Positions 1,763-22,265 of a DNA stretch of 64,000 nucleotides are shown in pieces (within the stretch, counting starts at the first letter, position 1; every line of letters begins with the position of its first letter). The DNA comes from Steroidobacteraceae bacterium. GTDB taxonomy: Bacteria > Pseudomonadota > Gammaproteobacteria > Steroidobacterales > Steroidobacteraceae. The position numbers were made by a program, and so were the translations under genes. The DNA lies in the NCBI GenBank assembly GCA_019187495.1, contig JABAQN010000009.1, positions 34,934-98,933 of the forward strand, written 5' to 3'. The notes under the pieces are model-generated. The model was given only the letters and a program-made list of their open reading frames with translations. It did no database searches and had not been told where the DNA came from.

Positions 1763-2851
1763 TCACGTTGGCGGAATTGGTGCTGCATTCAGCTCTTTCT
1801 CACACAAGGTCTTTCGCGAGGCAGACGGCGAACGACCGGTCCATTTCCTGAAAGCCCGCGCAAAGTTCACACTATCACCAAAGCCGAGCCTCTGTGCTAT
1901 TTCGCCGAGCGGCATGGCATGATCTTGCAGCAAATCGAGCGCTAGTGAATGACGGCAGCGATTCTTCAGATCCTGCAAACTGGTGTGCTCGTTCAAGAGC
2001 CGGCGCTTTAGCGTTGCAGAGCTGATGCCAAGTTGCGCCGCGATCTGTTTCGTTGTTGGCAGGGCCACGTGGTGTGCGAGCGCCATACCGAGAATAACGC
2101 GCACGCGCTCCGAAGTCGGCAGCTGCGATGAGACTGTCATGGTCAGATCAAATGGAAACTCCTGCAGAAGATCATCCAACTCGGACGTGCTGCGCACCAC
2201 AGGCAAGCGGAGGAAGGAGGCTGGAAATCGCAGGAAATTGTCCGATCCTCGGTAGACAACGGGATGCGGCAACAACCACGCAACGACTTCGTCTCGCAAG
2301 AGCTGCCGGTAACAGACCTCGACACTGAGCGGAGCAAGTTCGGTGCCGATCAACCAGCCGAACAGGCGCGCATAGGTCGAGAGCCCTGTGAGATCCGAGA
2401 GAAGGGCGCTGGCATCACGTTCTTTATGGAACGTATGCATCCGAAATTTAGCACGCCCTGCCATGCACCGAAGCGAAAGCTCCCCAGCCCGACCACCGAG
2501 CATCCTGCAAAAATCGGCGGCACGCTGGATTGCCTGTTCAAGGGTACTGCAGCTGATGATGCAGTAGCAGAGCAAATCGACCTCTGCCTTGTTCATCGCC
2601 GGGCGGCCGGCCCGGCGGCCGATGTGAGCCTCGAGAGTTTGCGCGCAGTCCCGGAAGATGGCACAGATCTGCGCGTGCGATAACCGTCGCCGCAAATAAG
2701 CGAGCGAAAATGCGCCTGTCCTTGACTCGAGGCCCGCGCGTTCCAGAATTCCCTTGATATCACCCCCGACGTCGCGAACTCTCTCCAGGAGCTCGTGTAC
2801 GACTGCTGGTGGAATCGAACTTGAATTCAGCCTCGCGATGTACTTGCTCAT
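1763..2851 (-). CDS. AraC family transcriptional regulator
   Basis: 362-aa ORF with a C-terminal double HTH: TTKQIAAQLGISSATLKRRLLNEHTSLQDL ... LGEIAQRLGFGDSVNFARAFRKWTGRSPSASRK. It lies directly upstream of, and co-directional with, the partial sulfatase. Confidence 0.9.
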   Translation of the reverse strand: MSKYIARLNSSSIPPAVVHELLERVRDVGGDIKGILERAGLESRTGAFSLAYLRRRLSHAQICAIFRDCAQTLEAHIGRRAGRPAMNKAEVDLLCYCIISCSTLEQAIQRAADFCRMLGGRAGELSLRCMAGRAKFRMHTFHKERDASALLSDLTGLSTYARLFGWLIGTELAPLSVEVCYRQLLRDEVVAWLLPHPVVYRGSDNFLRFPASFLRLPVVRSTSELDDLLQEFPFDLTMTVSSQLPTSERVRVILGMALAHHVALPTTKQIAAQLGISSATLKRRLLNEHTSLQDLKNRCRHSLALDLLQDHAMPLGEIAQRLGFGDSVNFARAFRKWTGRSPSASRKTLCEKELNAAPIPPT

Positions 2852-2879: not shown

Positions 2880-4203
2880 CTAGCAGGCCGCTGAAAAAGT
2901 CAGGAACTTGAGCGTGCGGGGGCTGCCCAAAGGCAAGCGAGCGAAACGACGGACAAGCTGATGCGTGGACATGTGAATCCCCAATCGAAGATGTTCAGTT
3001 ACTTTTCGCCGGACGATCGGGTACCAGCGCGGCATCCGCTGCGCTCGATCAAGAGCTACACGGATGCGGCGCTGAAGGCGATCCGCCCGACGCTTGATGG
3101 GATGTACAGCGACATGGGCCGTCCGTCGATTCCGCCGGAACGGCTGCTCAAGGCACAGTTGCTGATTGCGTTGTACTCGGTGCGCAGCGATCGATTGTTT
3201 TGCGAGACGCTCGATTACAACATCCTGTTTCGCTGGTTTCTCGACATGAGTCTGGAGGAGCCGGCGTTTGACGCCTCGACGTTCAGCAAGAATCGCGAGC
3301 GACTGGCCCGCGAGGAAGTCGCGTTGAAGTTCTTCGATGCGGTGGTGCGCCAGGCACGTCGACTCGAGCTGCTGTCCGACGAGCACTTCAGTGTTGATGG
3401 CACCCTGATCGAGGCGTGGGCCTCGATGAAGTCGTTTCGGCCGAAGGACGGCGGTGGCTCGGGCCCGGACGCCGGGGGTGATCGGGATTTCAAGGGTGAG
3501 CGGCGGCGCAATGACACGCACGCCAGTACGAGCGACCCGGAGGCCAAGCTGTTGCGCAAGGCGGCCGGCAAGGAAGCCAAACTGTGCTTTGCGGGTCACG
3601 GCCTGATGGATAACCGCCACGGTCTGATGACCGACGTGGCGCTGACCGTCTCGGTCGAGGTGACCGAGCCGCAGGCCGCGCTGGCGATGATCACGCGGCA
3701 ACGCCGCAAGCATCTGCGCCCGAAGAGTGTCGGCGGCGACAAGGGCTATCACACCCAGCAGTTCGTCACCGGGCTGCGCGAGCACGGCACCGCGGCCCAC
3801 GTGGCGTTCATGGAAGCGCGCAATGTCGGTCTCGGTGAAGGTGTGCGCGAGAGCGCCGGCTACCGGGCCAGCCAGATCGTGCGCAAGCGCATCGAGCAGT
3901 TCTGGGGTTGGGGCAAGACCGTCGGCGGGCTGCGCAAGACCCGCTTGCGCGGCGTGCGGCGCAACGCACCCCTGCTCGCGCTGAACGGTGCCGCTTACAA
4001 TCTGCTGCGGATCAGCCGGCTGTGCCCTGCTACAGGATAGGAGTCTCTGCGGTGCACGCTGACCGCTCGAATGACGAGAATCACCATGCCGAACGGGTCG
4101 CGATGAGGGCGATCGCCGTCGAATCCACCAAGGCGAATTGAGCGAGCTACACGTCGAAGGGCGAATCATGATCGAAATATCGGCTTTTTCAGCAGCCTGC
4201 TAG
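2880..4203 (+). mobile_element. Intact IS5-superfamily insertion sequence (~1.3 kb) with terminal inverted repeats and CTAG at both junctions
   Basis: Left end is CTAG-CAGGCCGCTGAAAAAGTC (2880..). The reverse complement of the right end is CTAG-CAGGCTGCTGAAAAAGCC (..4203). This is about 22 nt of inverted repeat with 2 mismatches, enclosing a single transposase ORF. CTAG at 2880-2883 and 4200-4203 fits the YTAR 4-bp target duplication of IS5-type elements, but because it is palindromic it could instead be the outermost IR bases. Confidence 0.85.
2961..4040 (+). CDS. IS5/IS1182-like DDE transposase
   Basis: 359-aa ORF. The N-terminal InsH-like region reads RPSIPPERLLKAQLLIALYSVRSDRLFCETLDYNILFRWFLDM. 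Candidate DDE residues lie in SVDGTLIEA, GGDKGYH and RKRIEQFWGWGK. Confidence 0.9.
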   Translation: MRGHVNPQSKMFSYFSPDDRVPARHPLRSIKSYTDAALKAIRPTLDGMYSDMGRPSIPPERLLKAQLLIALYSVRSDRLFCETLDYNILFRWFLDMSLEEPAFDASTFSKNRERLAREEVALKFFDAVVRQARRLELLSDEHFSVDGTLIEAWASMKSFRPKDGGGSGPDAGGDRDFKGERRRNDTHASTSDPEAKLLRKAAGKEAKLCFAGHGLMDNRHGLMTDVALTVSVEVTEPQAALAMITRQRRKHLRPKSVGGDKGYHTQQFVTGLREHGTAAHVAFMEARNVGLGEGVRESAGYRASQIVRKRIEQFWGWGKTVGGLRKTRLRGVRRNAPLLALNGAAYNLLRISRLCPATG

Positions 4204-9216: not shown

Positions 9217-11571
9217 TCACCATTTGTAAGTTGCAGTAACCATGTATGTGCGCGGCTCTCGGAACTGACCCACACGATACATGCTGAAATCGATGTTACT
9301 GCTCAGCTCATCTTCATCCGTCAGATTGCGGCCCCAAAGTGACACATCCATCGTGCCCGGCCCGATCAGCAGATCGCTCAGCAGCAACCGGGCATTCAGA
9401 TTACGGGATGCTGGCACTGAATCGACGCCCGCAAGGTACTGCCCGCCAGCATTCGGTGCCGCGAGGCTCTTGTTCACCGGCATCATATGCATTTTCGACG
9501 TATAGGAGTAATCGAGCAGCACCCTCAGATCGCCCCAGGCGGCACGCAGCAGCCGACCCTCGAGATTCACGTTGAGTGTGTGCTTGGGCGAGTACGGCGG
9601 CTCACGGTTGCTGGCGGTGTCGATCAACGGACCACCTATCCCAACCGGTCCTCCGGGCGTCAATGGCGGCAAAAGCGCGTTATCCACGTACTTGTTGAAT
9701 TTTGCATCAAGATATCCATATCCCAGTTGCAGTTGCCAACCGTCAGCGATCGACAGAGCTGCATCTACCTCAATGCCCTTGCGTGTCGACTCGCCCGCAT
9801 TGACCATGAGCGACTGCGTTGTGCCGGGCAGGAGCTGTGTCATCTGTTGCTTGGTGATCTTCGTATGATAGAAGGCCAAGTTCAGCCGCGCTCGACCTTC
9901 GAAGAAAGAAGTCTTCATGCCGACCTCACTTGCTACTGATTTCTCCGGCATATATGGCGTAGTAACCCGCGGGTCGGCCACCTCGGGGCTAAATCCACCA
10001 CTCTGAAAACCCGTGGCCACGCGGCCGTAGAAATTCAGATCCCTGTTCGCCCTGTAAGCCAGAGCCACCATCGGTGTGGTGGCACTGAAATCCTCGCTGT
10101 AGGCGATGAACGGTAGAATCTCCGCAGCAAATGCGCCACCAAAGCCATTCGTGCGAAAACGATGAGACCAGCCTCTCTTCTCCTCCTGCGTGTATCGGGC
10201 CCCGACAGTCGCTGTCCAGCGATCGCCGAACGAATAGTCGACCTGGGAATAAACCGCCTTCGCACGCGTGCCCAAGGCATAGTCGGCACGTTGCGGCGGA
10301 CTCCCGAAGAGCGAGAAATCCTGGCTTCCCCTCGTTTCGCCATCATCGGTGAAATAGTAAAGCCCTAGCACGTACTTGAATCGCGCGCGATGACCGACCC
10401 ATTGCAGCTCGTGCGAGTCCTGCTCATAGTGCGTATTTCGACTGCTATGCGCATGCAATCCCCATACGATCGGTCCGAGGGAAATCGTATCCAGCGGTGT
10501 TCCGTCGAGATCGTTCTGATCGCTATAGCGCATAGTGCGCCTGGCGAAGATGTACTTGAGCTCATCTTCGTCGCCCGCCTGCCATGTGGCGGTGAGCGCA
10601 TGTGCATCACTCTTGCTCCGCTCATGGAGAGGATCCGCCCCGGCACCTGTGACGTCAAGCACGCTGGGCCGTGAAGTCGTAGCATAGGGAGTGAGTGCGG
10701 TCTGGATCGCCGTGCCGAGCGCCGGCCCGAAAAGAGCCGGGAATGTGCCTCGCCAGCCATTGAGCGCGTAGATTGGAATCGGGGCCGGCGTATTGGCTAC
10801 GTCGGAATAGTCGAAATCGTATATCGCGTTGAAGTTATCCGAAAACTCGAGCATCAAGGAGGCACGCGCGGCCTCGCTATCCTGAGCGCCGAGGTCGGGG
10901 CCGCCAAGATTTTCCACCCATCCGTCACGCTTCTGCTTGCGCGCACCGAAAGCCAGGCTCGCGATCCCGACGCGCGGCAAGTCGAGACTGCCCCTGATCG
11001 CACGATGATCAAGGTTGCCAAGTTCGACTCCTGCGGAGCCTCGAAACTCTCCCGACGGGCGACGGGTGACAAAGTTGATCGCGCCACCCTCGGTATTGCG
11101 CCCGAAGAGTGTACCTTGAGGTCCACGCAGAACCTCTACCCGTTCGATATCTACGACATCGAAGATGTTGCCTTGGGATTTACCGAGATATACTCCGTTG
11201 AGATAAATTCCCACGGACGGCTCTCCGTAGATCGCCACTTGCCCGGGAAAGCTGCCGCGGATGCTTACGCGTGAAATCAGCGATCCGCCCGGGCTTTCTC
11301 GAAACATGAGATTTGGCGCGAGCGCATTCAGGTCCGCGAGGCCGGCAATGCCGCGGCTCTGAATTTGCTCCGCGCCAATAGCCGTGATCGAGATCGGCAC
11401 ATCCTGAAGATTCTCCGCACGTTTCTGGGCAGTGACGACGACTTCCGGCAATGCCATGCTCTCGTCTGCCGGTGGCGCCTCTTGTGCGACTGACGATGTT
11501 GACATGCCCCATGCCGCAAGCAGCGAAGCAGCAACTCGCACACTTCCGGCAGCGCCCGTTCGCGAGATCAT
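9217..11571 (-). CDS. TonB-dependent outer-membrane receptor
   Basis: 784-aa ORF with a signal peptide, the plug motif LPEVVVTAQKRAENLQDVPISITAI and a C-terminal aromatic end ...VTATYKW. It ends 27 nt upstream of the sulfatase start, which suggests an operon. Confidence 0.92.
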   Translation of the reverse strand: MISRTGAAGSVRVAASLLAAWGMSTSSVAQEAPPADESMALPEVVVTAQKRAENLQDVPISITAIGAEQIQSRGIAGLADLNALAPNLMFRESPGGSLISRVSIRGSFPGQVAIYGEPSVGIYLNGVYLGKSQGNIFDVVDIERVEVLRGPQGTLFGRNTEGGAINFVTRRPSGEFRGSAGVELGNLDHRAIRGSLDLPRVGIASLAFGARKQKRDGWVENLGGPDLGAQDSEAARASLMLEFSDNFNAIYDFDYSDVANTPAPIPIYALNGWRGTFPALFGPALGTAIQTALTPYATTSRPSVLDVTGAGADPLHERSKSDAHALTATWQAGDEDELKYIFARRTMRYSDQNDLDGTPLDTISLGPIVWGLHAHSSRNTHYEQDSHELQWVGHRARFKYVLGLYYFTDDGETRGSQDFSLFGSPPQRADYALGTRAKAVYSQVDYSFGDRWTATVGARYTQEEKRGWSHRFRTNGFGGAFAAEILPFIAYSEDFSATTPMVALAYRANRDLNFYGRVATGFQSGGFSPEVADPRVTTPYMPEKSVASEVGMKTSFFEGRARLNLAFYHTKITKQQMTQLLPGTTQSLMVNAGESTRKGIEVDAALSIADGWQLQLGYGYLDAKFNKYVDNALLPPLTPGGPVGIGGPLIDTASNREPPYSPKHTLNVNLEGRLLRAAWGDLRVLLDYSYTSKMHMMPVNKSLAAPNAGGQYLAGVDSVPASRNLNARLLLSDLLIGPGTMDVSLWGRNLTDEDELSSNIDFSMYRVGQFREPRTYMVTATYKW

Positions 11572-12228: not shown

Positions 12229-12532
12229 TGCATCGGACGCGCGACAGGCCGCCGGCTTCCGGTGTCGCAGTCTCGAATATTTTTGCCAGTGCAGTTCCCG
12301 GCTCGATCGGTGAACTGGTGGCCGACGCGACGGGAGACAACAGCAGTGCCACATTCCGCTTCATGAGATTCAAGCTTGCAGTCAGATTTCCCGATCTGAA
12401 AATCAGGTATCGGGGATGTACGGTATCGATTACGGCGAGCCCCTCTGCCGCGATCTTTGATCCATTCTGCTGTTGCTGCGCATACTGCCCCGACGGATAC
12501 TGCATCACAGCTCCAGGAAGGGATGATGGGCC

Positions 12533-13774
12533 ATGCAAAAGCGACTCCCCCCACGCAAGGTTCTCTACGGCGGCGCAATGCTCGATCAAAAGGAGATCGA
12601 CGCCGTGGTCAAGGTCATGCAGAAGGGCATGGCCATCGGCAAGCAGGTGCAGACGTTCGAGAAGCGCTGCGCAGAAGTCATGGGCCACAAGTACGGCGTG
12701 ATGGTCAATTCGGGCTCCTCGGCTCTCATGCTGGCGATGCGCATGCTGAACCTGCCAAAGGGTTCTGAAGTGATCACGCCCGTGCTCACCTTTTCCACCG
12801 ACGTGGCGTCCATCGTGCATGCGGGCTACGTGCCGGCATTCGTCGATGTGGAGCTCGATACCTACCAGATCGATATCGAGCGAATCGAACGCATGATCGG
12901 GTCGAACACGCGTGCAATGCTCGTGCCGAATCTCGTCGGTGGGACGCCCGATTGGGACCGTCTGCGGGCACTTGCAGACAAGCACAATCTCAAGCTCGTC
13001 GAGGACAGCTGCGATACCCTCGGCGGAACACTCCGTGGCACGAAAACGGGGCTCCGGGCGGATATCTCGGTAACGAGTTTCTCGATCTTCCACATCATCA
13101 CCTGCCTCGGCAACGGCGGCCTCGTCGCCGTCGATGACGAAAAGCTCTGGGACTGGGGCCTGATGGCGCGTTGCTGGGGCCGTTCCTCGGAGAAATTCAT
13201 GCACGGCACGCGCGTGAATGACAGCGACGGACGTTTTCTCGAGGATCTCGATGGCATTCCTTACGACGGCATGTTTATCTTCGAGGATGTCGCCTACGGC
13301 TTCATCCCGAACGAGGCGGGCGCGGCGTTCGGTCACGAGCAGCTCAACAAGCTCGACATGTTCTGGAAGCTGCGCGATCGCAATTTCCAGAGCCACCGTC
13401 GCTTCCTTGACAAGCACCCGGATCTCTTCATCCCCGCACGCCTCCTGCCCGGTGTAGATACCACCTGGATCTGCTACCCCGTGCAGCTGCGGCCCGAGAC
13501 GGGCTGGAGCCGTCGTTCCCTGCAAGTGCATCTGGAAGATGCTGGCATCAACACGCGTGTGATCTTCTCCGGGAATATCACCCGCCATCCGATGATGAAA
13601 GGTGTCACCTACCGCAGCGATCCAGGGGGCTACCGCAACGCTGATCAGATCATGGAACAGGGCCTGATGCTGCCTTGCCATCCGACAATGACCGAAGACG
13701 ACTGCAGCTATCTCTATCAGACCATCGAGGACTGGATCGCCCTGCAGCGCAACCGGAAGACAGCCTCAGGCTGA
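12533..13774 (+). CDS. DegT/DnrJ/EryC1/StrS-fold PLP/PMP enzyme with His at the Schiff-base Lys position (sugar 3-dehydratase-like, RfbH/ColD type)
   Basis: 413-aa ORF with GKQVQTFEKRCAEVMGHKYGVMVNSGSSALMLAM. Its active-site segment is TSFSIFHIITCLGNGG, against the aminotransferase consensus SFHxxKxxTxGEGG. GGAAGGGA lies upstream of the ATG. Confidence 0.8.
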   Translation: MQKRLPPRKVLYGGAMLDQKEIDAVVKVMQKGMAIGKQVQTFEKRCAEVMGHKYGVMVNSGSSALMLAMRMLNLPKGSEVITPVLTFSTDVASIVHAGYVPAFVDVELDTYQIDIERIERMIGSNTRAMLVPNLVGGTPDWDRLRALADKHNLKLVEDSCDTLGGTLRGTKTGLRADISVTSFSIFHIITCLGNGGLVAVDDEKLWDWGLMARCWGRSSEKFMHGTRVNDSDGRFLEDLDGIPYDGMFIFEDVAYGFIPNEAGAAFGHEQLNKLDMFWKLRDRNFQSHRRFLDKHPDLFIPARLLPGVDTTWICYPVQLRPETGWSRRSLQVHLEDAGINTRVIFSGNITRHPMMKGVTYRSDPGGYRNADQIMEQGLMLPCHPTMTEDDCSYLYQTIEDWIALQRNRKTASG

Positions 13775-13779
13775 CGGCC

Positions 13780-14718
13780 ATGGAACTGCGCCCGCTCGGC
13801 CGGACGGACCTCCGCGTTTCCGTGGTAGGGCTCGGCGGCAACAATTTCGGCTGGAAAGCCGACCTTGCGGGCACCCGCTCGATCATCGACCGAGCACTCG
13901 CGTGCGGCGTGAACATTATTGACACCGCCGACAGCTATGGCCCCTCGGAGGACTTCATCGGCGAGATCCTGGGCGAGCGACGCAAGAACGTGGTGCTCGC
14001 CACCAAGTTCGGCTCGCCCATGGACACGGAGGGTCGGAAGAAAGGTGCTGGACGCGCTTACCTGATGACGGCCGTCGAATCGAGCCTGCGCCGCCTGCGG
14101 ACGGACTGGATCGATCTCTATCAGCTGCACTACCCCGATCCGGCGACACCCATCGAGGAGACGTTGCGCGCGCTCGAGGATCTCATCACCCAAGGCAAAG
14201 TGCGTGCCATCGGTTGTTCGAACCTCTCGGCCGCGCAGCTCGGCGAAGCGCAGGAAACCGCAAGGCAGATCGGTCTCGCGGGCTTTGCGTCCACACAGAA
14301 CGAATATAGCCTGCTCGTGCGGAATATCGAGAGCGAGCTCGGCCCGCAGATCGCGAAGTACGAGCTGGGGCTTCTGCCCTACTTCCCGCTCGCCAACGGA
14401 CTGCTGACCGGAAAGTACCAGCCCGGGAAGCCGCCACCGGCCGAGTCACGCCTGGCCGATGCCCCACCGTTCTTCGACAGCTACCGCGAGGCGTCGAAAT
14501 GGGAGATGGCTGCAAAGCTCCAGGCCTTCGCCACCGCGCGCGGGCACACTCTTCTCGAACTTGCGTTCTCCTGGCTCGCCGCGCAGCCAGGCGTCGCGAG
14601 CGTCATCGCCGGTGCGAGCCGACCCCAGCAGGTTGAGCAGAATGCGCGTGCCGCAGGCTGGAGACTCACGAGCGCCGAGCTGGCCGAGATCGACCGCATG
14701 ACCAGGCCGGCGCAGTGA
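13780..14718 (+). CDS. Aldo/keto reductase
   Basis: Internal Met of ORF 13675..14718: MELRPLGRTDLRVSVVGLGGNNFGW ... IIDTADSYG ... typical AKR. It starts 5 nt after the DegT-like stop. Confidence 0.88.
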   Translation: MELRPLGRTDLRVSVVGLGGNNFGWKADLAGTRSIIDRALACGVNIIDTADSYGPSEDFIGEILGERRKNVVLATKFGSPMDTEGRKKGAGRAYLMTAVESSLRRLRTDWIDLYQLHYPDPATPIEETLRALEDLITQGKVRAIGCSNLSAAQLGEAQETARQIGLAGFASTQNEYSLLVRNIESELGPQIAKYELGLLPYFPLANGLLTGKYQPGKPPPAESRLADAPPFFDSYREASKWEMAAKLQAFATARGHTLLELAFSWLAAQPGVASVIAGASRPQQVEQNARAAGWRLTSAELAEIDRMTRPAQ

Positions 14719-16352
14719 ACGGGAAGAACCGCTTCGACTTCGTGATCGCCGGCGGCGGCTCGGCCGGCTGTGTGCTCGCCCGGCGACTGTCGGACGATCC
14801 GGCGCTGCGGGTACTGCTCGTCGAGGCCGGAGTGCGGGATCGCAGCCCCTTGCTCAGTGCCCCGGGCGGGTTGCTGCAAATCATGCGCTCAGGGTCCTAC
14901 GCATGGCGCTACAGCTCGGTACCGCAGCGGCAGCTGAACGATCGCGTGCTCTATGTTCCCCGTGGCAAAGTACTCGGAGGTGGGTCTTCCATCAACGGCA
15001 TGGTCTACGACCGAGGCTCGGCGCGCGACTTCGACCGTTGGAACGAGTTGGGCAACGAGGGCTGGTCATACGCCGAGGTGCTACCCTACTTCCGTCGCGC
15101 CGAGACCTACGAGCCGGGAGCAAACGACTTCCACGGCGGAGACGGGCCGATACATGTCAGCCGCCCGCAGGTAAAACACCCGCTCGCCCGCGCTTTCGTC
15201 GAGGCAGGCGCGCAGGCCGGCTACCCGCATAACGAAGATACCAATGGCGCCCGCCGCGAAGGCTTCGGGCCGGTCGATGTCACGGTCGGCCGCGGCCGGC
15301 GCTCGAGCACGTCGTCCGCCTATCTGCGTCCCGTGATGAATCGCCCGAATCTGTCGGTGATCACCGGCGCGCACGTGACACGCATCCTGTTCGAGGGCCG
15401 GCGCGCCGTCGGTCTCAGCTATCGGCGGGGCGGCAGGGACTACACTGTCCGCGCGGCGCGCGAGGTGATCCTCTCGGCCGGCGCGATCAACTCGCCGCAG
15501 ATCCTGATGCTCTCCGGCCTCGGGCCCGCGGATCATCTGCGCGCGCACGGCATCCAGCCACTCCTCGATCTGCCGGGCGTGGGCGGCAACCTTCAGGATC
15601 ACCTGGCCATCACGGTCAAACACCGCTGCCTGCAACCGATCTCGATGTTCAAGTACTTCAGCCCGTTGAAGGGCACTGCGGCACTCGCTCGATACCTTCT
15701 ATGGCACGAGGGCCCGCTCGCGGATCCGGGCATGGAAGCGGCGGGCTTCGTGAAGTCGGAGACCCAGGAGCCCGAGCCCGACATCAAGCTGCTGTTCGTC
15801 ATGGCGCTCTACCGAAACCACGGTCGCGATGTCATTCCCGAACACGGTTTCTACGCGCACATCAACTGCCTGCATCCCGAGAGTCGCGGTACAGTACGGC
15901 TCGCCTCGGCCGATCCCGCTGCACCGCCTCTCATTGATCAGAACTATCTGAACGAGCCGCGGGATCTCAGCATCATGCGCCGCGGCGTGCAGATCGCCCG
16001 TGAAATTTTTGCTCAGCGTCCTTTCGATGCCTATCGGGGCGACGAGCTCGAGCCCGGACCGGCCGTACTGAGCGATGCGGAAATCGACCGCTCCATTCGC
16101 TCGAACGCCGATGCCGACTATCACAGCGTCGGCACGGCGCAGATGGGCCGGGACGCGCAGACCGTCGTGGACGAGCGCCTGCGCGTGCACGGCATCGACG
16201 GACTGCGCATCGTCGACGCCTCCATCATGCCGAGAATCGTAGGCGCCAACACCAACATGGCTGTCATCATGATTGCGGAAAAGGCGGCCGACATGATCCT
16301 GGACCGCCCCGCCCTGCCGTGTGCCGATCCCGTCCGCGATCATGCCCCCTGA
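14715..16352 (+). CDS. GMC-family FAD oxidoreductase (choline/alcohol dehydrogenase-like)
   Basis: 545-aa ORF with the FAD fold FDFVIAGGGSAGCVLARRLS and the GMC signature region GKVLGGGSSINGMVY. Its GTG start overlaps the AKR stop (GTGA). Confidence 0.9.
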   Translation: MNGKNRFDFVIAGGGSAGCVLARRLSDDPALRVLLVEAGVRDRSPLLSAPGGLLQIMRSGSYAWRYSSVPQRQLNDRVLYVPRGKVLGGGSSINGMVYDRGSARDFDRWNELGNEGWSYAEVLPYFRRAETYEPGANDFHGGDGPIHVSRPQVKHPLARAFVEAGAQAGYPHNEDTNGARREGFGPVDVTVGRGRRSSTSSAYLRPVMNRPNLSVITGAHVTRILFEGRRAVGLSYRRGGRDYTVRAAREVILSAGAINSPQILMLSGLGPADHLRAHGIQPLLDLPGVGGNLQDHLAITVKHRCLQPISMFKYFSPLKGTAALARYLLWHEGPLADPGMEAAGFVKSETQEPEPDIKLLFVMALYRNHGRDVIPEHGFYAHINCLHPESRGTVRLASADPAAPPLIDQNYLNEPRDLSIMRRGVQIAREIFAQRPFDAYRGDELEPGPAVLSDAEIDRSIRSNADADYHSVGTAQMGRDAQTVVDERLRVHGIDGLRIVDASIMPRIVGANTNMAVIMIAEKAADMILDRPALPCADPVRDHAP

Positions 16353-16716
16353 CCCGCAGTCGATGAAAGCCGCGATGCAGGCCTATATCGATGGCCTCAA
16401 TCGCGGCGATACTGACGCGGTGATTGCGCTATTCGCGGACGATGCGATCATTGAAGATCCGGTCGGCACTGAGCCCAAGCAGGGGCCGGCCATCCGTGAG
16501 TGGTTCCGCCAGGCTGTTGCGATGAGGGCACAACTCGCGCTCGCGACTCCCATCCGAGGATCGCACGGCAATGCGGCGGCGATGGCCTTCACCGTGACCA
16601 CCGAATGGGAAGGCCGAAGCGTCCGAATCCGCTCGCTCGACGTGTGTACTTTCGACGAGGCGGGCCGCATCAACCGTCTCGAGGGATACTGGGGACCCGA
16701 CGACGTCGAGGGTTGA
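16342..16716 (+). CDS. ksi: Steroid delta-isomerase (3-oxo-delta5-steroid isomerase, KSI) homologue
   Basis: MPPDPQSMKAAMQAYIDGLNRGDTDAVIALFADDAIIEDPVGTEPKQGPAIREWF closely parallels my recollection of Comamonas testosteroni KSI (..[44 protein letters not shown]..). Counterparts of Tyr14 (QAY), Asp38 (IEDPVG) and Asp99 (SLDVCTF) are present. The 124 codons fit the ~125-aa KSI. This start is chosen to keep the KSI-like N-terminal length and overlaps the GMC 3' end by 11 nt. Confidence 0.8.
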   Translation: MPPDPQSMKAAMQAYIDGLNRGDTDAVIALFADDAIIEDPVGTEPKQGPAIREWFRQAVAMRAQLALATPIRGSHGNAAAMAFTVTTEWEGRSVRIRSLDVCTFDEAGRINRLEGYWGPDDVEG

Positions 16717-16728
16717 GGGGACAATGCA

Positions 16729-17493
16729 ATGCGTGGCTTGAGAGACAAGGTGGTCGTGATTGCTGGCGGCGGCAGTGGCATCGGCGCGGCCACGGCACGG
16801 CGGCTGGCCGAGGAAGACGCGCGGGTCGTGATCGGAGACCTGTCCGCCAACGCCGCCCGATCGGTCGCGCGCAGCATCGAGTCGGCGGGCGGACGAGCGA
16901 CCGGCCTCGCCTTCAATGTGAGGGACACGGCCTCCGTGGCGCGCCTGATGCAGGTGGCGATGGATGCCTTTGGTCGGCTGGACGCGTTACACGTCAACGC
17001 CGCCGACATGGGCGCGATCCGCGAAGATCCGGACGCCGCCGAAATCTCCTTCGAGCTCTTCGATCGCACGATCGCCGTGAATCTTCGCGGCCATCTGCTG
17101 TGCACCCAGCAGGCGCTGCCACACCTGTTGCGCAGCGCCGGCTGCGCCATCGTCTACACGACATCCGAGTCTGCCTACATCGGAGAGCCGACTCGCGTGG
17201 CCTATGCCATGAGCAAGAGCGGCTTGAACGCGCTCATGCGTCACGTCGCCTCGCGCTGGGGTCGCCATGGCCTGCGCGCCAACGCCGTAGCCCCGGGCCT
17301 CACCCTCACCGAGGAAGTCGACCGTTCGCTGGATCCCGAGCTGCGCGACAAGTCCCTTGCCGAAGTGCACAGCACGCGCCTCGTGTCACCGCAGGATGTC
17401 GCGGCGACGGTGGCTTTCCTGCTTTCTGATGATGCCGCTTCCATCAACGGGCAGGTCATCAGCGTCGATGGTGGGCGGACGATGCGCGCATGA
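16729..17493 (+). CDS. Short-chain dehydrogenase/reductase (SDR)
   Basis: 254-aa ORF with VVVIAGGGSGIGAATARRLAEEDARVVIGD. GAGGGGA RBS lies upstream. Confidence 0.9.
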   Translation: MRGLRDKVVVIAGGGSGIGAATARRLAEEDARVVIGDLSANAARSVARSIESAGGRATGLAFNVRDTASVARLMQVAMDAFGRLDALHVNAADMGAIREDPDAAEISFELFDRTIAVNLRGHLLCTQQALPHLLRSAGCAIVYTTSESAYIGEPTRVAYAMSKSGLNALMRHVASRWGRHGLRANAVAPGLTLTEEVDRSLDPELRDKSLAEVHSTRLVSPQDVAATVAFLLSDDAASINGQVISVDGGRTMRA

Positions 17494-18344
17494 CCAGCGA
17501 TATCGATCTCATCGCCAATTGCTGGACGATCGCGGGAGATTTCCTGCCCGCACCGGGGCGCAGCGCCTGCCCGATTCCTCTCGAGGAACGTCTCGCTGCC
17601 GCTGCCGAAGCCGGCTATACGGGAGTCGGGTTTTTCCACGGCGATCTCATCGCGTATCTCGATCGGGGCGGCAGTTTTCGCGCGCTTCGCAGCCGTCTCG
17701 ATGCCCACGGCATCCGCCATGTCGAACTCGAGTATCTCACCGACTGGTTCGCAGACGGCGAGCGCCGACAACGATCCGATGCGATACGGCAAGATCTGTA
17801 TGTCGCAGCGGATGCGCTACGCGCTCGGCACATCAAGGTCATGCCACCTTTCGGCAACGAAGGCTGGTCCCGGCAGCGGCTGATCGACGAATACGGCGAG
17901 CTCTGTGCCGAGGCTGAGGACCACAACCTCCTCATGCCCATCGAGATGATCCCATTCTCAGACCTGCCGACACTGGACGCCGCCCTGTCGATTCCGGCGG
18001 GCGCGGAAGCCGCAAACGGCGGGCTTCTGATCGACGTCTGGCACGTAGTGCGTTCGGGTGGCTGCTTCGAGGACATCCAGCGCGTGCCTTCACGCTACCT
18101 CCTGGCCGCGGAAATCGACGACGCCGACCGCGTGATGCGCGGTGAAATTCGCGAAGACACGATGCACCACCGCAAGTTCTGCGGCGAGGGCGATTTTGAC
18201 GTACCGGCCTTCATCGCCGCGATGACTCGCGCGGGCTATCGCGGACCTTATGGCGTAGAGATCCTGTCCGACGAACTGCGGCGCCTGCCGCTCGCAGAAG
18301 CCGCTCGGCGCAGTTTCAGGACGGCGAGGGCGCAGTTCCGATGA
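17490..18344 (+). CDS. Sugar phosphate isomerase/epimerase (xylose-isomerase-like TIM barrel) family protein
   Basis: 284-aa ORF of typical family length and pattern (..AAAEAGYTGVGFF.., ..HIKVMPPFG.., ..IEMIPFS.., ..GGLLIDVWHV..). ATGA overlaps on both sides (17490 and 18341). Confidence 0.75.
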   Translation: MTSDIDLIANCWTIAGDFLPAPGRSACPIPLEERLAAAAEAGYTGVGFFHGDLIAYLDRGGSFRALRSRLDAHGIRHVELEYLTDWFADGERRQRSDAIRQDLYVAADALRARHIKVMPPFGNEGWSRQRLIDEYGELCAEAEDHNLLMPIEMIPFSDLPTLDAALSIPAGAEAANGGLLIDVWHVVRSGGCFEDIQRVPSRYLLAAEIDDADRVMRGEIREDTMHHRKFCGEGDFDVPAFIAAMTRAGYRGPYGVEILSDELRRLPLAEAARRSFRTARAQFR

Positions 18345-19453
18345 AGGCGCCGCGGCTACTGAATGTACGGGCAGCGGTCTGTCACGGCGTCGGTGAACCG
18401 TTACGGCTCGAAACCGTCCAACTCGCACCGCCGGCCGCGGACGAAGTGCTGATCGAGATCAAGGCGAGCGGTCTGTGCCATTCCGACTATCACCAGATGA
18501 CCGGTGTGAGCACGCCATACCCGTTTCCGGTCATCCTCGGCCATGAAGGCGCAGGTGTGGTCGCTGAGTGCGGCGCCGCCGTCGAGACGGTGCGCCCCGG
18601 CGACCATGTGGTGCCGCTGTCCATCGGCGAGTGTGGCCACTGCCGCAACTGCCGCTCCGGCAAAACCAATCTTTGCCTGGAATTCTTCGCGGGAATGCAG
18701 GCGCCGCCCCGGCGCTTTTCGATCGACGGCCGACCGGTCGCCGCCTACGCGAACAATGGCACTTTCGCCAGCTTCATCGTGATGAAAGAGCGGAACGTCG
18801 CCCGGATCCGCCGCGATGTTGCCTTCGATCTGGCCTGCACCATCGGCTGCGCCGTCGCCACAGGCGTTGGCGCCGTGCTCTACACCGCGCGCGTGGAGCG
18901 CAACGCCAGCGTCGCGGTTTTCGGTCTCGGCGGTATCGGCCTGAATGTCGTGCAGGGTGCCAGGCATGCCGGCGCAACCATGATCATCGGCATCGATGTG
19001 AATCCGGCACGCGAGGTGCTCGCACGACGCTTCGGAGCCACGCATTTCATCAATCCGCAGCAGCAATCGGGCAATGTCGTCGAGCACCTGCGTGCGCTGA
19101 CTGGCGGCGGAGTCGACTACAGCTTTGAGTGCGTCGGCTCGACACAGCTGATGTTCCAGGCGCTCGAGTGCACGCGTGCTGGGTGGGGCGTATGCACCGC
19201 ACTCGGTGTGCCGCCTGATGGCGAGAGGCTGCCCATACTGCCCTTCGATCTGCAGCTCGGACGCACTTTGAAGGGCTCTTTCCTGGGCAACGTCAAGACG
19301 CGCAGCCAGCTTCCGGGATTGCTGGATCTGTACGCCGACGGCGAGCTCAATCTGGCCGATCTCGTCACCCACCGTTTGCCCCTCGAGCGCATCAATGAGG
19401 GATTCGATCTCCTGCGCGAGGGTCGCTCGGTACGGACGGTTGTGACATTCTGA
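18341..19453 (+). CDS. Zn-dependent alcohol dehydrogenase (class III-like MDR)
   Basis: 370-aa ORF with GLCHSDYH, GHEGAGVV, the structural-Zn motif CGHCRNCRSGKTNLC and the Rossmann segment VFGLGGIGLNVVQGA. Confidence 0.92.
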   Translation: MKAPRLLNVRAAVCHGVGEPLRLETVQLAPPAADEVLIEIKASGLCHSDYHQMTGVSTPYPFPVILGHEGAGVVAECGAAVETVRPGDHVVPLSIGECGHCRNCRSGKTNLCLEFFAGMQAPPRRFSIDGRPVAAYANNGTFASFIVMKERNVARIRRDVAFDLACTIGCAVATGVGAVLYTARVERNASVAVFGLGGIGLNVVQGARHAGATMIIGIDVNPAREVLARRFGATHFINPQQQSGNVVEHLRALTGGGVDYSFECVGSTQLMFQALECTRAGWGVCTALGVPPDGERLPILPFDLQLGRTLKGSFLGNVKTRSQLPGLLDLYADGELNLADLVTHRLPLERINEGFDLLREGRSVRTVVTF

Positions 19454-19462
19454 GAGGTCGCA

Positions 19463-19603
19463 TCACCCGAGCGCACGCCGGTAAGCCGAAGGCGAGCGCT
19501 CTGCCCAGACCCTGGATGCGCGCGTGAAAGTCGCCACGTCGCTGATGTCCGGATGCGCGGCGACACCGTAAAGTTGGCAGTCATCTTTGCAGATGTGAAT
19601 AGA
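19463..19603 (-). pseudogene. 3'-terminal remnant of an AraC-family regulator gene
   Basis: Own translation of the 46 codons between two stops: SIHICKDDCQLYGVAAHPDISDVATFTRASRVWAERSPSAYRRALG*. The tail SDVxxFxRAxRxWxxRxxSxYR matches the C-termini of the two intact AraC genes in this window (e.g. GYSDVSNFRRAFRSWTGRRISDYR). There is no upstream continuation. Confidence 0.6.
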
Positions 19604-21404: not shown

Positions 21405-22265
21405 TTATTCACCGGTGTCCGGGATGGCAACGTAAGCATGGGGAGGAATCACCGGCGGCGGCAGCAGATCCCGGCCGTCCAGCGAATGCACCGGAAGCTG
21501 CATGGCCAGCGGGAAGTGCAGGCTGTACGCCACGAGCCCTGTGCGCTCTGCGGCGGGCCGATGGCACAGCGCCAGGGCGGTTTCCGCCAGATACTCGACA
21601 GGTTCAGTGGGGTAGTCCGCCGGCGTCCAGCGATCGGCACCCGGGGTGCGGATGGCCGTGCTCGGTGAGACGGCATTGACCGCGATGTTGTCCGCCTGCA
21701 GTTCGGCGGCGAGACCCTGGGTGAAGCGATGGACTGCGGCCTTGGCGGCGGCATAGAGGGTGGCGCCTCCCAGGCGCGCGAAGATGTCGTAAGGCCTGGC
21801 GGGGGGCAGCGCGGTGCAGGAGCCGAGCATCACGATCCATCCGGCGCCGCGCTTGCGCATCTGCGGTACTGCCTGCTTGACGAGCGCGAACGGGGCGCGC
21901 AGATAGTGGTCGATAGTGGTGTCGAACATGGCCATGGGCATCTCGACCGTGGGAGCGTAGTCGGCGATGCCGGCGTTGTTCACCAGGATGTCGAGGCCGC
22001 CGGCCGCTTCGACCGTGCGGTCCACCAGGCTGTCGCGTTCGACGGGCTTTTCCAGATTGGCAGCCAGTGCGATCGCGCGCCCTCCGGCAGCTTCGATCAG
22101 GGACACCGTTTCCATCAGCGTCCCGGCGAACTCCGTCGCGCGATCCAGGCTGCGCGCCGTGACCACCACCGTGGCGCCCTCACTCGCGAGGCGCCGGGCG
22201 ATGGCCCGGCCGATGCCGCGGCTCGCGCCAGTGACCAGGGCGATCCTGCCTTGTAAAAGGTTCAT
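21405..22265 (-). CDS. SDR family oxidoreductase (286 aa, extended C-terminus)
   Basis: GRIALVTGASRGIGRAIARRLASEGATVVVTARS ... YAAAKAAV. It starts 12 nt after the PQQ dehydrogenase stop. Confidence 0.9.
   Translation of the reverse strand: MNLLQGRIALVTGASRGIGRAIARRLASEGATVVVTARSLDRATEFAGTLMETVSLIEAAGGRAIALAANLEKPVERDSLVDRTVEAAGGLDILVNNAGIADYAPTVEMPMAMFDTTIDHYLRAPFALVKQAVPQMRKRGAGWIVMLGSCTALPPARPYDIFARLGGATLYAAAKAAVHRFTQGLAAELQADNIAVNAVSPSTAIRTPGADRWTPADYPTEPVEYLAETALALCHRPAAERTGLVAYSLHFPLAMQLPVHSLDGRDLLPPPVIPPHAYVAIPDTGE

Follow-up and report, generated by a model that had tools for sequence, protein, structure and literature searches.

ColD (GDP-4-keto-6-deoxymannose 3-dehydratase) and E1 remove the C3 hydroxyl of 4-keto-6-deoxyhexoses via a PMP ketimine. 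Bile-acid 7alpha-dehydroxylation (bai) follows a similar logic, in which a ketone is formed beside a hydroxyl and the hydroxyl is then removed, and the pathway includes an enzyme of the NTF2/SnoaL fold. In choline-O-sulfate utilisation (betICBA), an alcohol released by a formylglycine sulfatase is oxidised by a choline-dehydrogenase-type GMC enzyme, and in oxidative C-/O-deglycosylation (CarA/CarBC, DgpA/DgpBC and glycoside 3-oxidases), a GMC-superfamily or other oxidase is paired with a xylose-isomerase-like TIM barrel. In the 64,000-nucleotide stretch of Steroidobacteraceae DNA analyzed here (the window), a DegT-fold enzyme sharing fold, family and the histidine-for-lysine replacement with ColD and E1/RfbH/DdhC, both enzyme types of the choline-sulfate route and an oxidase/TIM-barrel pair were found together with a ketosteroid isomerase (KSI) homologue. 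A literature search found no paper on this cluster.

Layout and recurrence of the operon

The open reading frame list of the window contained seven co-directional genes, all on the plus strand, spanning positions 12533-19453 (Table 1). Read from the sequence, their junctions were, in order, a 5-nt gap, a GTGA overlap, an 11-nt overlap (ATGCCCCCTGA), a 12-nt gap and two ATGA overlaps, exactly the junction types claimed in the original prediction, and Pfam confirmed the family that it had assigned to each of the seven products. The start/stop overlaps imply co-translation, and the 11-nt overlap implies translational coupling of the KSI homologue to the GMC enzyme. None of the seven operon products had a signal-like N-terminus; the sulfatases have them.

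Table 1. Features of the window at and around the operon
Feature	Position	Strand	Evidence
AraC-family regulator, probable cognate regulator	1763..2851	-	Pfam Arabinose_bd + HTH_18
IS5-like transposase between AraC and sulfatase genes	2961..4040	+	Pfam DUF772 + DDE_Tnp_1
Large formylglycine-type sulfatase, 754 aa	4547..6811	-	Pfam Sulfatase 7.5e-65; CSPTR motif; hydrophobic signal-like N-terminus
Second large sulfatase, 773 aa	6868..9189	-	Pfam Sulfatase 2.8e-53; CSPTR motif
TonB-dependent outer-membrane receptor	9217..11571	-	Pfam Plug + TonB_dep_Rec_b-barrel
Conserved 5' element upstream of DegT, putative promoter/AraC operator	12434..12501	+	Cross-genome alignment
DegT-fold enzyme, His187 at Schiff-base Lys position, PMP-dependent dehydratase type	12533..13774	+	E1/ColD relatives; Pfam DegT_DnrJ_EryC1 6e-72
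Aldo-keto reductase (AKR)	13780..14718	+	Pfam Aldo_ket_red 1e-67
FAD GMC oxidoreductase, choline-dehydrogenase/alcohol-dehydrogenase subfamily	14715..16352	+	NCBIfam PRK02106; Pfam GMC_oxred_N/C 7e-59 / 3e-38
KSI homologue, 124 codons	16342..16716	+	PDB KSI match, catalytic residues; Pfam SnoaL_2 3e-15
Short-chain dehydrogenase (SDR), first of two-gene SDR-TIM cassette	16729..17493	+	Pfam adh_short 4e-44
Xylose-isomerase-like TIM barrel, QuiC/Lmo2234/IolI subgroup	17490..18344	+	PDB + Foldseek matches; Pfam AP_endonuc_2 3e-23
Zn-dependent alcohol dehydrogenase (Zn-ADH), class III-like	18341..19453	+	Pfam ADH_N + ADH_zinc_N
AraC regulator remnant, C-terminal	19469..19603	-	tblastn
Second SDR, type most often adjoining DegT-His elsewhere	21405..22265	-	Pfam adh_short 8.5e-42

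An independent metagenome contig (L096) carried all seven genes in identical order with an intact AraC gene after the operon, and Sphingomonas sp. KC8 (L091) had the run AKR-GMC-KSI-SDR-TIM; the arrangement is therefore not due to chance. The sister MAG L012 was without SDR and TIM, window positions 16711-18353 being missing there, and the GC content of the DegT gene was like that of the sulfatase block (57-60%), whereas that of the remaining six operon genes was 64-67%. The operon is thus modular and mosaic, and its seven genes need not make one linear pathway. The most widespread recurring core across loci was the His-type DegT gene (DegT-His) with either SDR or GMC-KSI, and KSI was always immediately 3' of GMC, in seven loci and in KC8. 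Zn-ADH was present in L012 and L096 and missing from the KC8 cluster.

The AraC regulator of the window was 54% identical to that divergently adjoining DegT in KC8, the 754-aa sulfatase was 48% identical to the KC8 sulfatase of the syntenic locus, and the 773-aa sulfatase was 65% identical to the KC8 sulfatase adjoining an SDR and a TonB receptor; TonB receptors also recurred in the Sphingobium estronivorans and Pseudomonadales loci. The AraC remnant comprised 46 residues corresponding to residues 406-451 of the intact AraC after the operon in L012. The element upstream of DegT could be aligned with counterparts in three Steroidobacteraceae MAGs, S. estronivorans and KC8; 30 columns of the alignment, TTTGA among them, were invariant, and the motif derived from it occurred once in the window against 0.05 occurrences expected.

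Relatives of the individual enzymes

The best solved relatives of the DegT product were E1 (2e-54; approximately 35% identity, as a rough reading of the alignment and not a computed value) and ColD (2e-39). His187 aligned with His220 of E1 and was invariant in 19 homologues. The DegT product lacks the Fe-S cysteines of E1, and ColD is likewise without an Fe-S cluster motif. The DegT-His clade was distinguished from the sugar-type enzymes by N65L, T90D, N137G, Y184S and N256G at conserved positions and by a 2-residue insertion. Unlike ColD/E1-type genes, DegT-His genes lay in catabolic loci under AraC control, in the company of sulfatases, SDR, GMC, KSI and P450, whereas a Ruegeria/Kaistia clade, 46% identical, did adjoin 4,6-dehydratases and glycosyltransferases.

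In a PDB search, the KSI homologue gave a full-length match to the KSI of Comamonas testosteroni (E 3e-24, 39% identity), and its Tyr15, Asp39 and Asp100, equivalent to Tyr14, Asp38 and Asp99, were invariant in seven orthologues; the earlier claim of a genuine KSI homologue with the catalytic Tyr/Asp/Asp is confirmed. The window homologue differs from the C. testosteroni and Pseudomonas putida enzymes in having Phe at the position equivalent to Tyr55 and in its coupling to a GMC flavoenzyme, and MonBII epoxide-opening cyclases scored almost as well against it (8.5e-23 versus 2.9e-24 for KSI). It was the sole close KSI homologue in the window genome; in KC8, the operon-type KSI is a second one besides KC8_01015 of the core steroid cluster (PMC6895838 supplement).

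The GMC enzyme scored 672 bits against the choline-dehydrogenase subfamily model PRK02106, above the cut-off of 605, and 582 bits against the BetA equivalog, below the cut-off of 732. Its top PDB match was choline dehydrogenase 9lq0 (9e-137, 460 bits), and chloramphenicol oxidase was also among its best solved relatives. A pyranose oxidase model matched at only 1.9e-7, covering the last 60 residues, and there was no glycoside 3-oxidase among its 52 PDB matches at E<=1e-20. The system differs from betICBA also in that the window sulfatases are 750-780 aa long versus about 500 and matched the choline-sulfatase model at only 3e-11, in the absence of BetB, and in having KSI, DegT-His and TIM, which have no role in choline metabolism. 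The Zn-ADH scored 391 bits against TIGR02818, below the cut-off of 544. The best solved relatives of the SDR were PtmO8 (diterpenoid) and levodione reductase, which act on terpenoid-type ketones, and the P450 partner at other loci was CYP101 (camphor)-like; these two features would be equally compatible with an alicyclic terpenoid as substrate. Of 80 DegT-His loci, 18 had a homologue of the second SDR, 32-69% identical, no more than a few kb from DegT-His.

The TIM barrel matched 2g0w (1e-23) and 5hmq (2e-12) in the PDB, and its AF2 model (pLDDT 94.7) gave 5hmq, 2g0w and 1i60 as top Foldseek matches with TM 0.83-0.85; its nearest structures are those of the QuiC1 dehydroshikimate dehydratase domain, Lmo2234 and IolI. 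No C-deglycosidase matched it by sequence at E<=0.01 or in the Foldseek top 50. KC8 and S. estronivorans had homologues that were 60% and 57% identical to it, respectively.

Association with steroid degraders

KC8, a degrader of estrogen and testosterone, carried six of the seven operon genes at 60-87% identity (AKR 66%, GMC 70%, SDR 70%). Its locus also encoded AraC, large sulfatases, DUF1214 and a TonB receptor, and had the order DUF1214-sulfatase-sulfatase, AKR-GMC-KSI-SDR-TIM, AraC, DegT, followed by a further sulfatase, an SDR and the TonB receptor. The order in the steroid degrader S. estronivorans was AraC, then DegT-sulfatase-DUF1214-TonB receptor, and in alphaproteobacterial MAGs KSI came directly after GMC, at loci that had DegT in one copy or two and in some cases P450. 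When the surroundings of 80 DegT-His loci were surveyed, the partner genes were SDR (40), acyl-CoA synthetase (12), GMC (approximately 12), AraC (at least 11, divergent and upstream of DegT), enoyl-CoA hydratase (7), KstD-like flavoprotein (6), sulfatase and sulfotransferase (5 each) and P450 (4). These are lipid/steroid-type genes, not sugar genes. In Halieaceae, KstD-like flavoproteins adjoined DegT-His.

With KstD-family presence (E<=1e-110) as a single-marker proxy, for which all matches but one were under the NCBIfam strict equivalog cut-off, and among related genomes that are not independent, the DegT-His clade (at least 59% identity) occurred in a 400-genome class sample only in G000 (the window genome, with two KstD-family genes), G226 and G348, all three among the eight KstD-family genomes, whereas no KstD-family match occurred in the 11 genomes whose homologues were of the sugar type (42-45% identity); a further 15 clade-bearing genomes, from Alpha-, Beta- and Gammaproteobacteria, Myxococcota and Spirochaetales, all had KstD-family genes scoring 380 bits or more. 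The genuine KSI, the synteny in KC8 and S. estronivorans and this confinement of DegT-His to KstD-family genomes uphold the link to steroids in the original prediction; its oxidative removal of a sugar did not stand.

Proposed function and alternative readings

We propose, at a probability of roughly 0.5, that the locus is a mobile accessory module removing sulfate and surplus oxygen functions from steroids. As a horizontally mobile, modular "upper pathway" of steroid catabolism controlled by the AraC regulator, it would convert sulfated, extra-oxygenated steroids to plain delta4-3-ketosteroids for the central pathway; we infer the substrates and the step order from the observed gene content, homology, catalytic residues, synteny and genome association. 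The TonB-dependent receptor would take in the sulfate ester, and the signal-bearing sulfatases would desulfate it in the periplasm. The cytoplasmic GMC enzyme may then oxidise the steroid alcohol, in the most economical case a 3beta-hydroxy-delta5 steroid, and the coupled KSI would shift the double bond into conjugation; the 3beta-hydroxysteroid role is one option only, because this GMC subfamily usually oxidises primary alcohols. An SDR, ADH or AKR enzyme would turn a vicinal diol into an alpha-ketol (a hydroxyl beside a ketone), on which the His-type DegT enzyme would make a PMP ketimine and expel the hydroxyl, as ColD and E1 do at C3, with PMP probably regenerated from glutamate as in ColD. 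The AKR, SDR and Zn-ADH may interconvert leftover hydroxyl and keto groups, and the metal-dependent TIM barrel may isomerise or dehydrate a hydroxy-ketone ring. The enzymes and chemistry differ from those of the bai pathway, as the proposed step is a PMP ketimine elimination and the operon has neither bai homologues nor CoA ligation.

A less probable reading, although one of some weight, is that desulfation, alcohol oxidation, alpha-ketol dehydroxylation and double-bond isomerisation by these enzymes serve a non-steroid alicyclic substrate, candidates being a sulfated or hydroxylated terpenoid, a hopanoid polyol or a cyclitol-like compound; steroid degraders would then carry the module merely as generalist lipid degraders. 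The P450 of several loci (CYP101/P450cam-like, 5.6e-69), the relatives of the SDR, the preference of the GMC subfamily for primary alcohols and the resemblance of the TIM barrel to the carbocyclic keto-polyol enzymes QuiC and IolI (inositol pathway) are consistent with it, but the strict tie of DegT-His to KstD-family genomes, the conserved KSI triad, the presence of the module in estrogen/testosterone degraders and the KstD-like flavoproteins of the Halieaceae loci argue for steroids.

It is improbable that the genes have no common pathway and are a chance assembly of oxidoreductases with broad specificity, serving for instance in carbonyl detoxification, that recombination has gathered opportunistically beside an IS. 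The SDR-TIM indel, the GC step between DegT and AKR, the IS and AraC remnant at the borders and the varying partners among loci agree with such an origin; against it, the order repeated on L096 and the retention of five to six of the genes side by side in different classes (60-87% identity) point to selection for the set as a whole, the start/stop overlaps imply co-translation, and the GMC-KSI adjacency is strict.

Least probable, and close to refuted, is the reading that a GMC glycoside 3-oxidase and a TIM-barrel lyase oxidatively remove the sugar of a steroidal or triterpenoid glycoside (saponin) and KSI isomerises the aglycone: the context is indeed steroidal and the two enzymes belong to the superfamilies of CarA and CarB/DgpC, but within these they are of different subfamilies, one choline-dehydrogenase-like and one QuiC/Lmo2234/IolI-like, with the search results given above, L012 does without SDR-TIM, and in the window and related loci the neighbours are sulfatases, whereas glycosidases, sugar kinases and sugar transporters are absent. 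The original prediction had itself named clustering with unrelated families such as choline dehydrogenase as evidence against this reading. The better supported of its two readings is the recruitment of sugar-type enzymes to polyol-like steroid rings.

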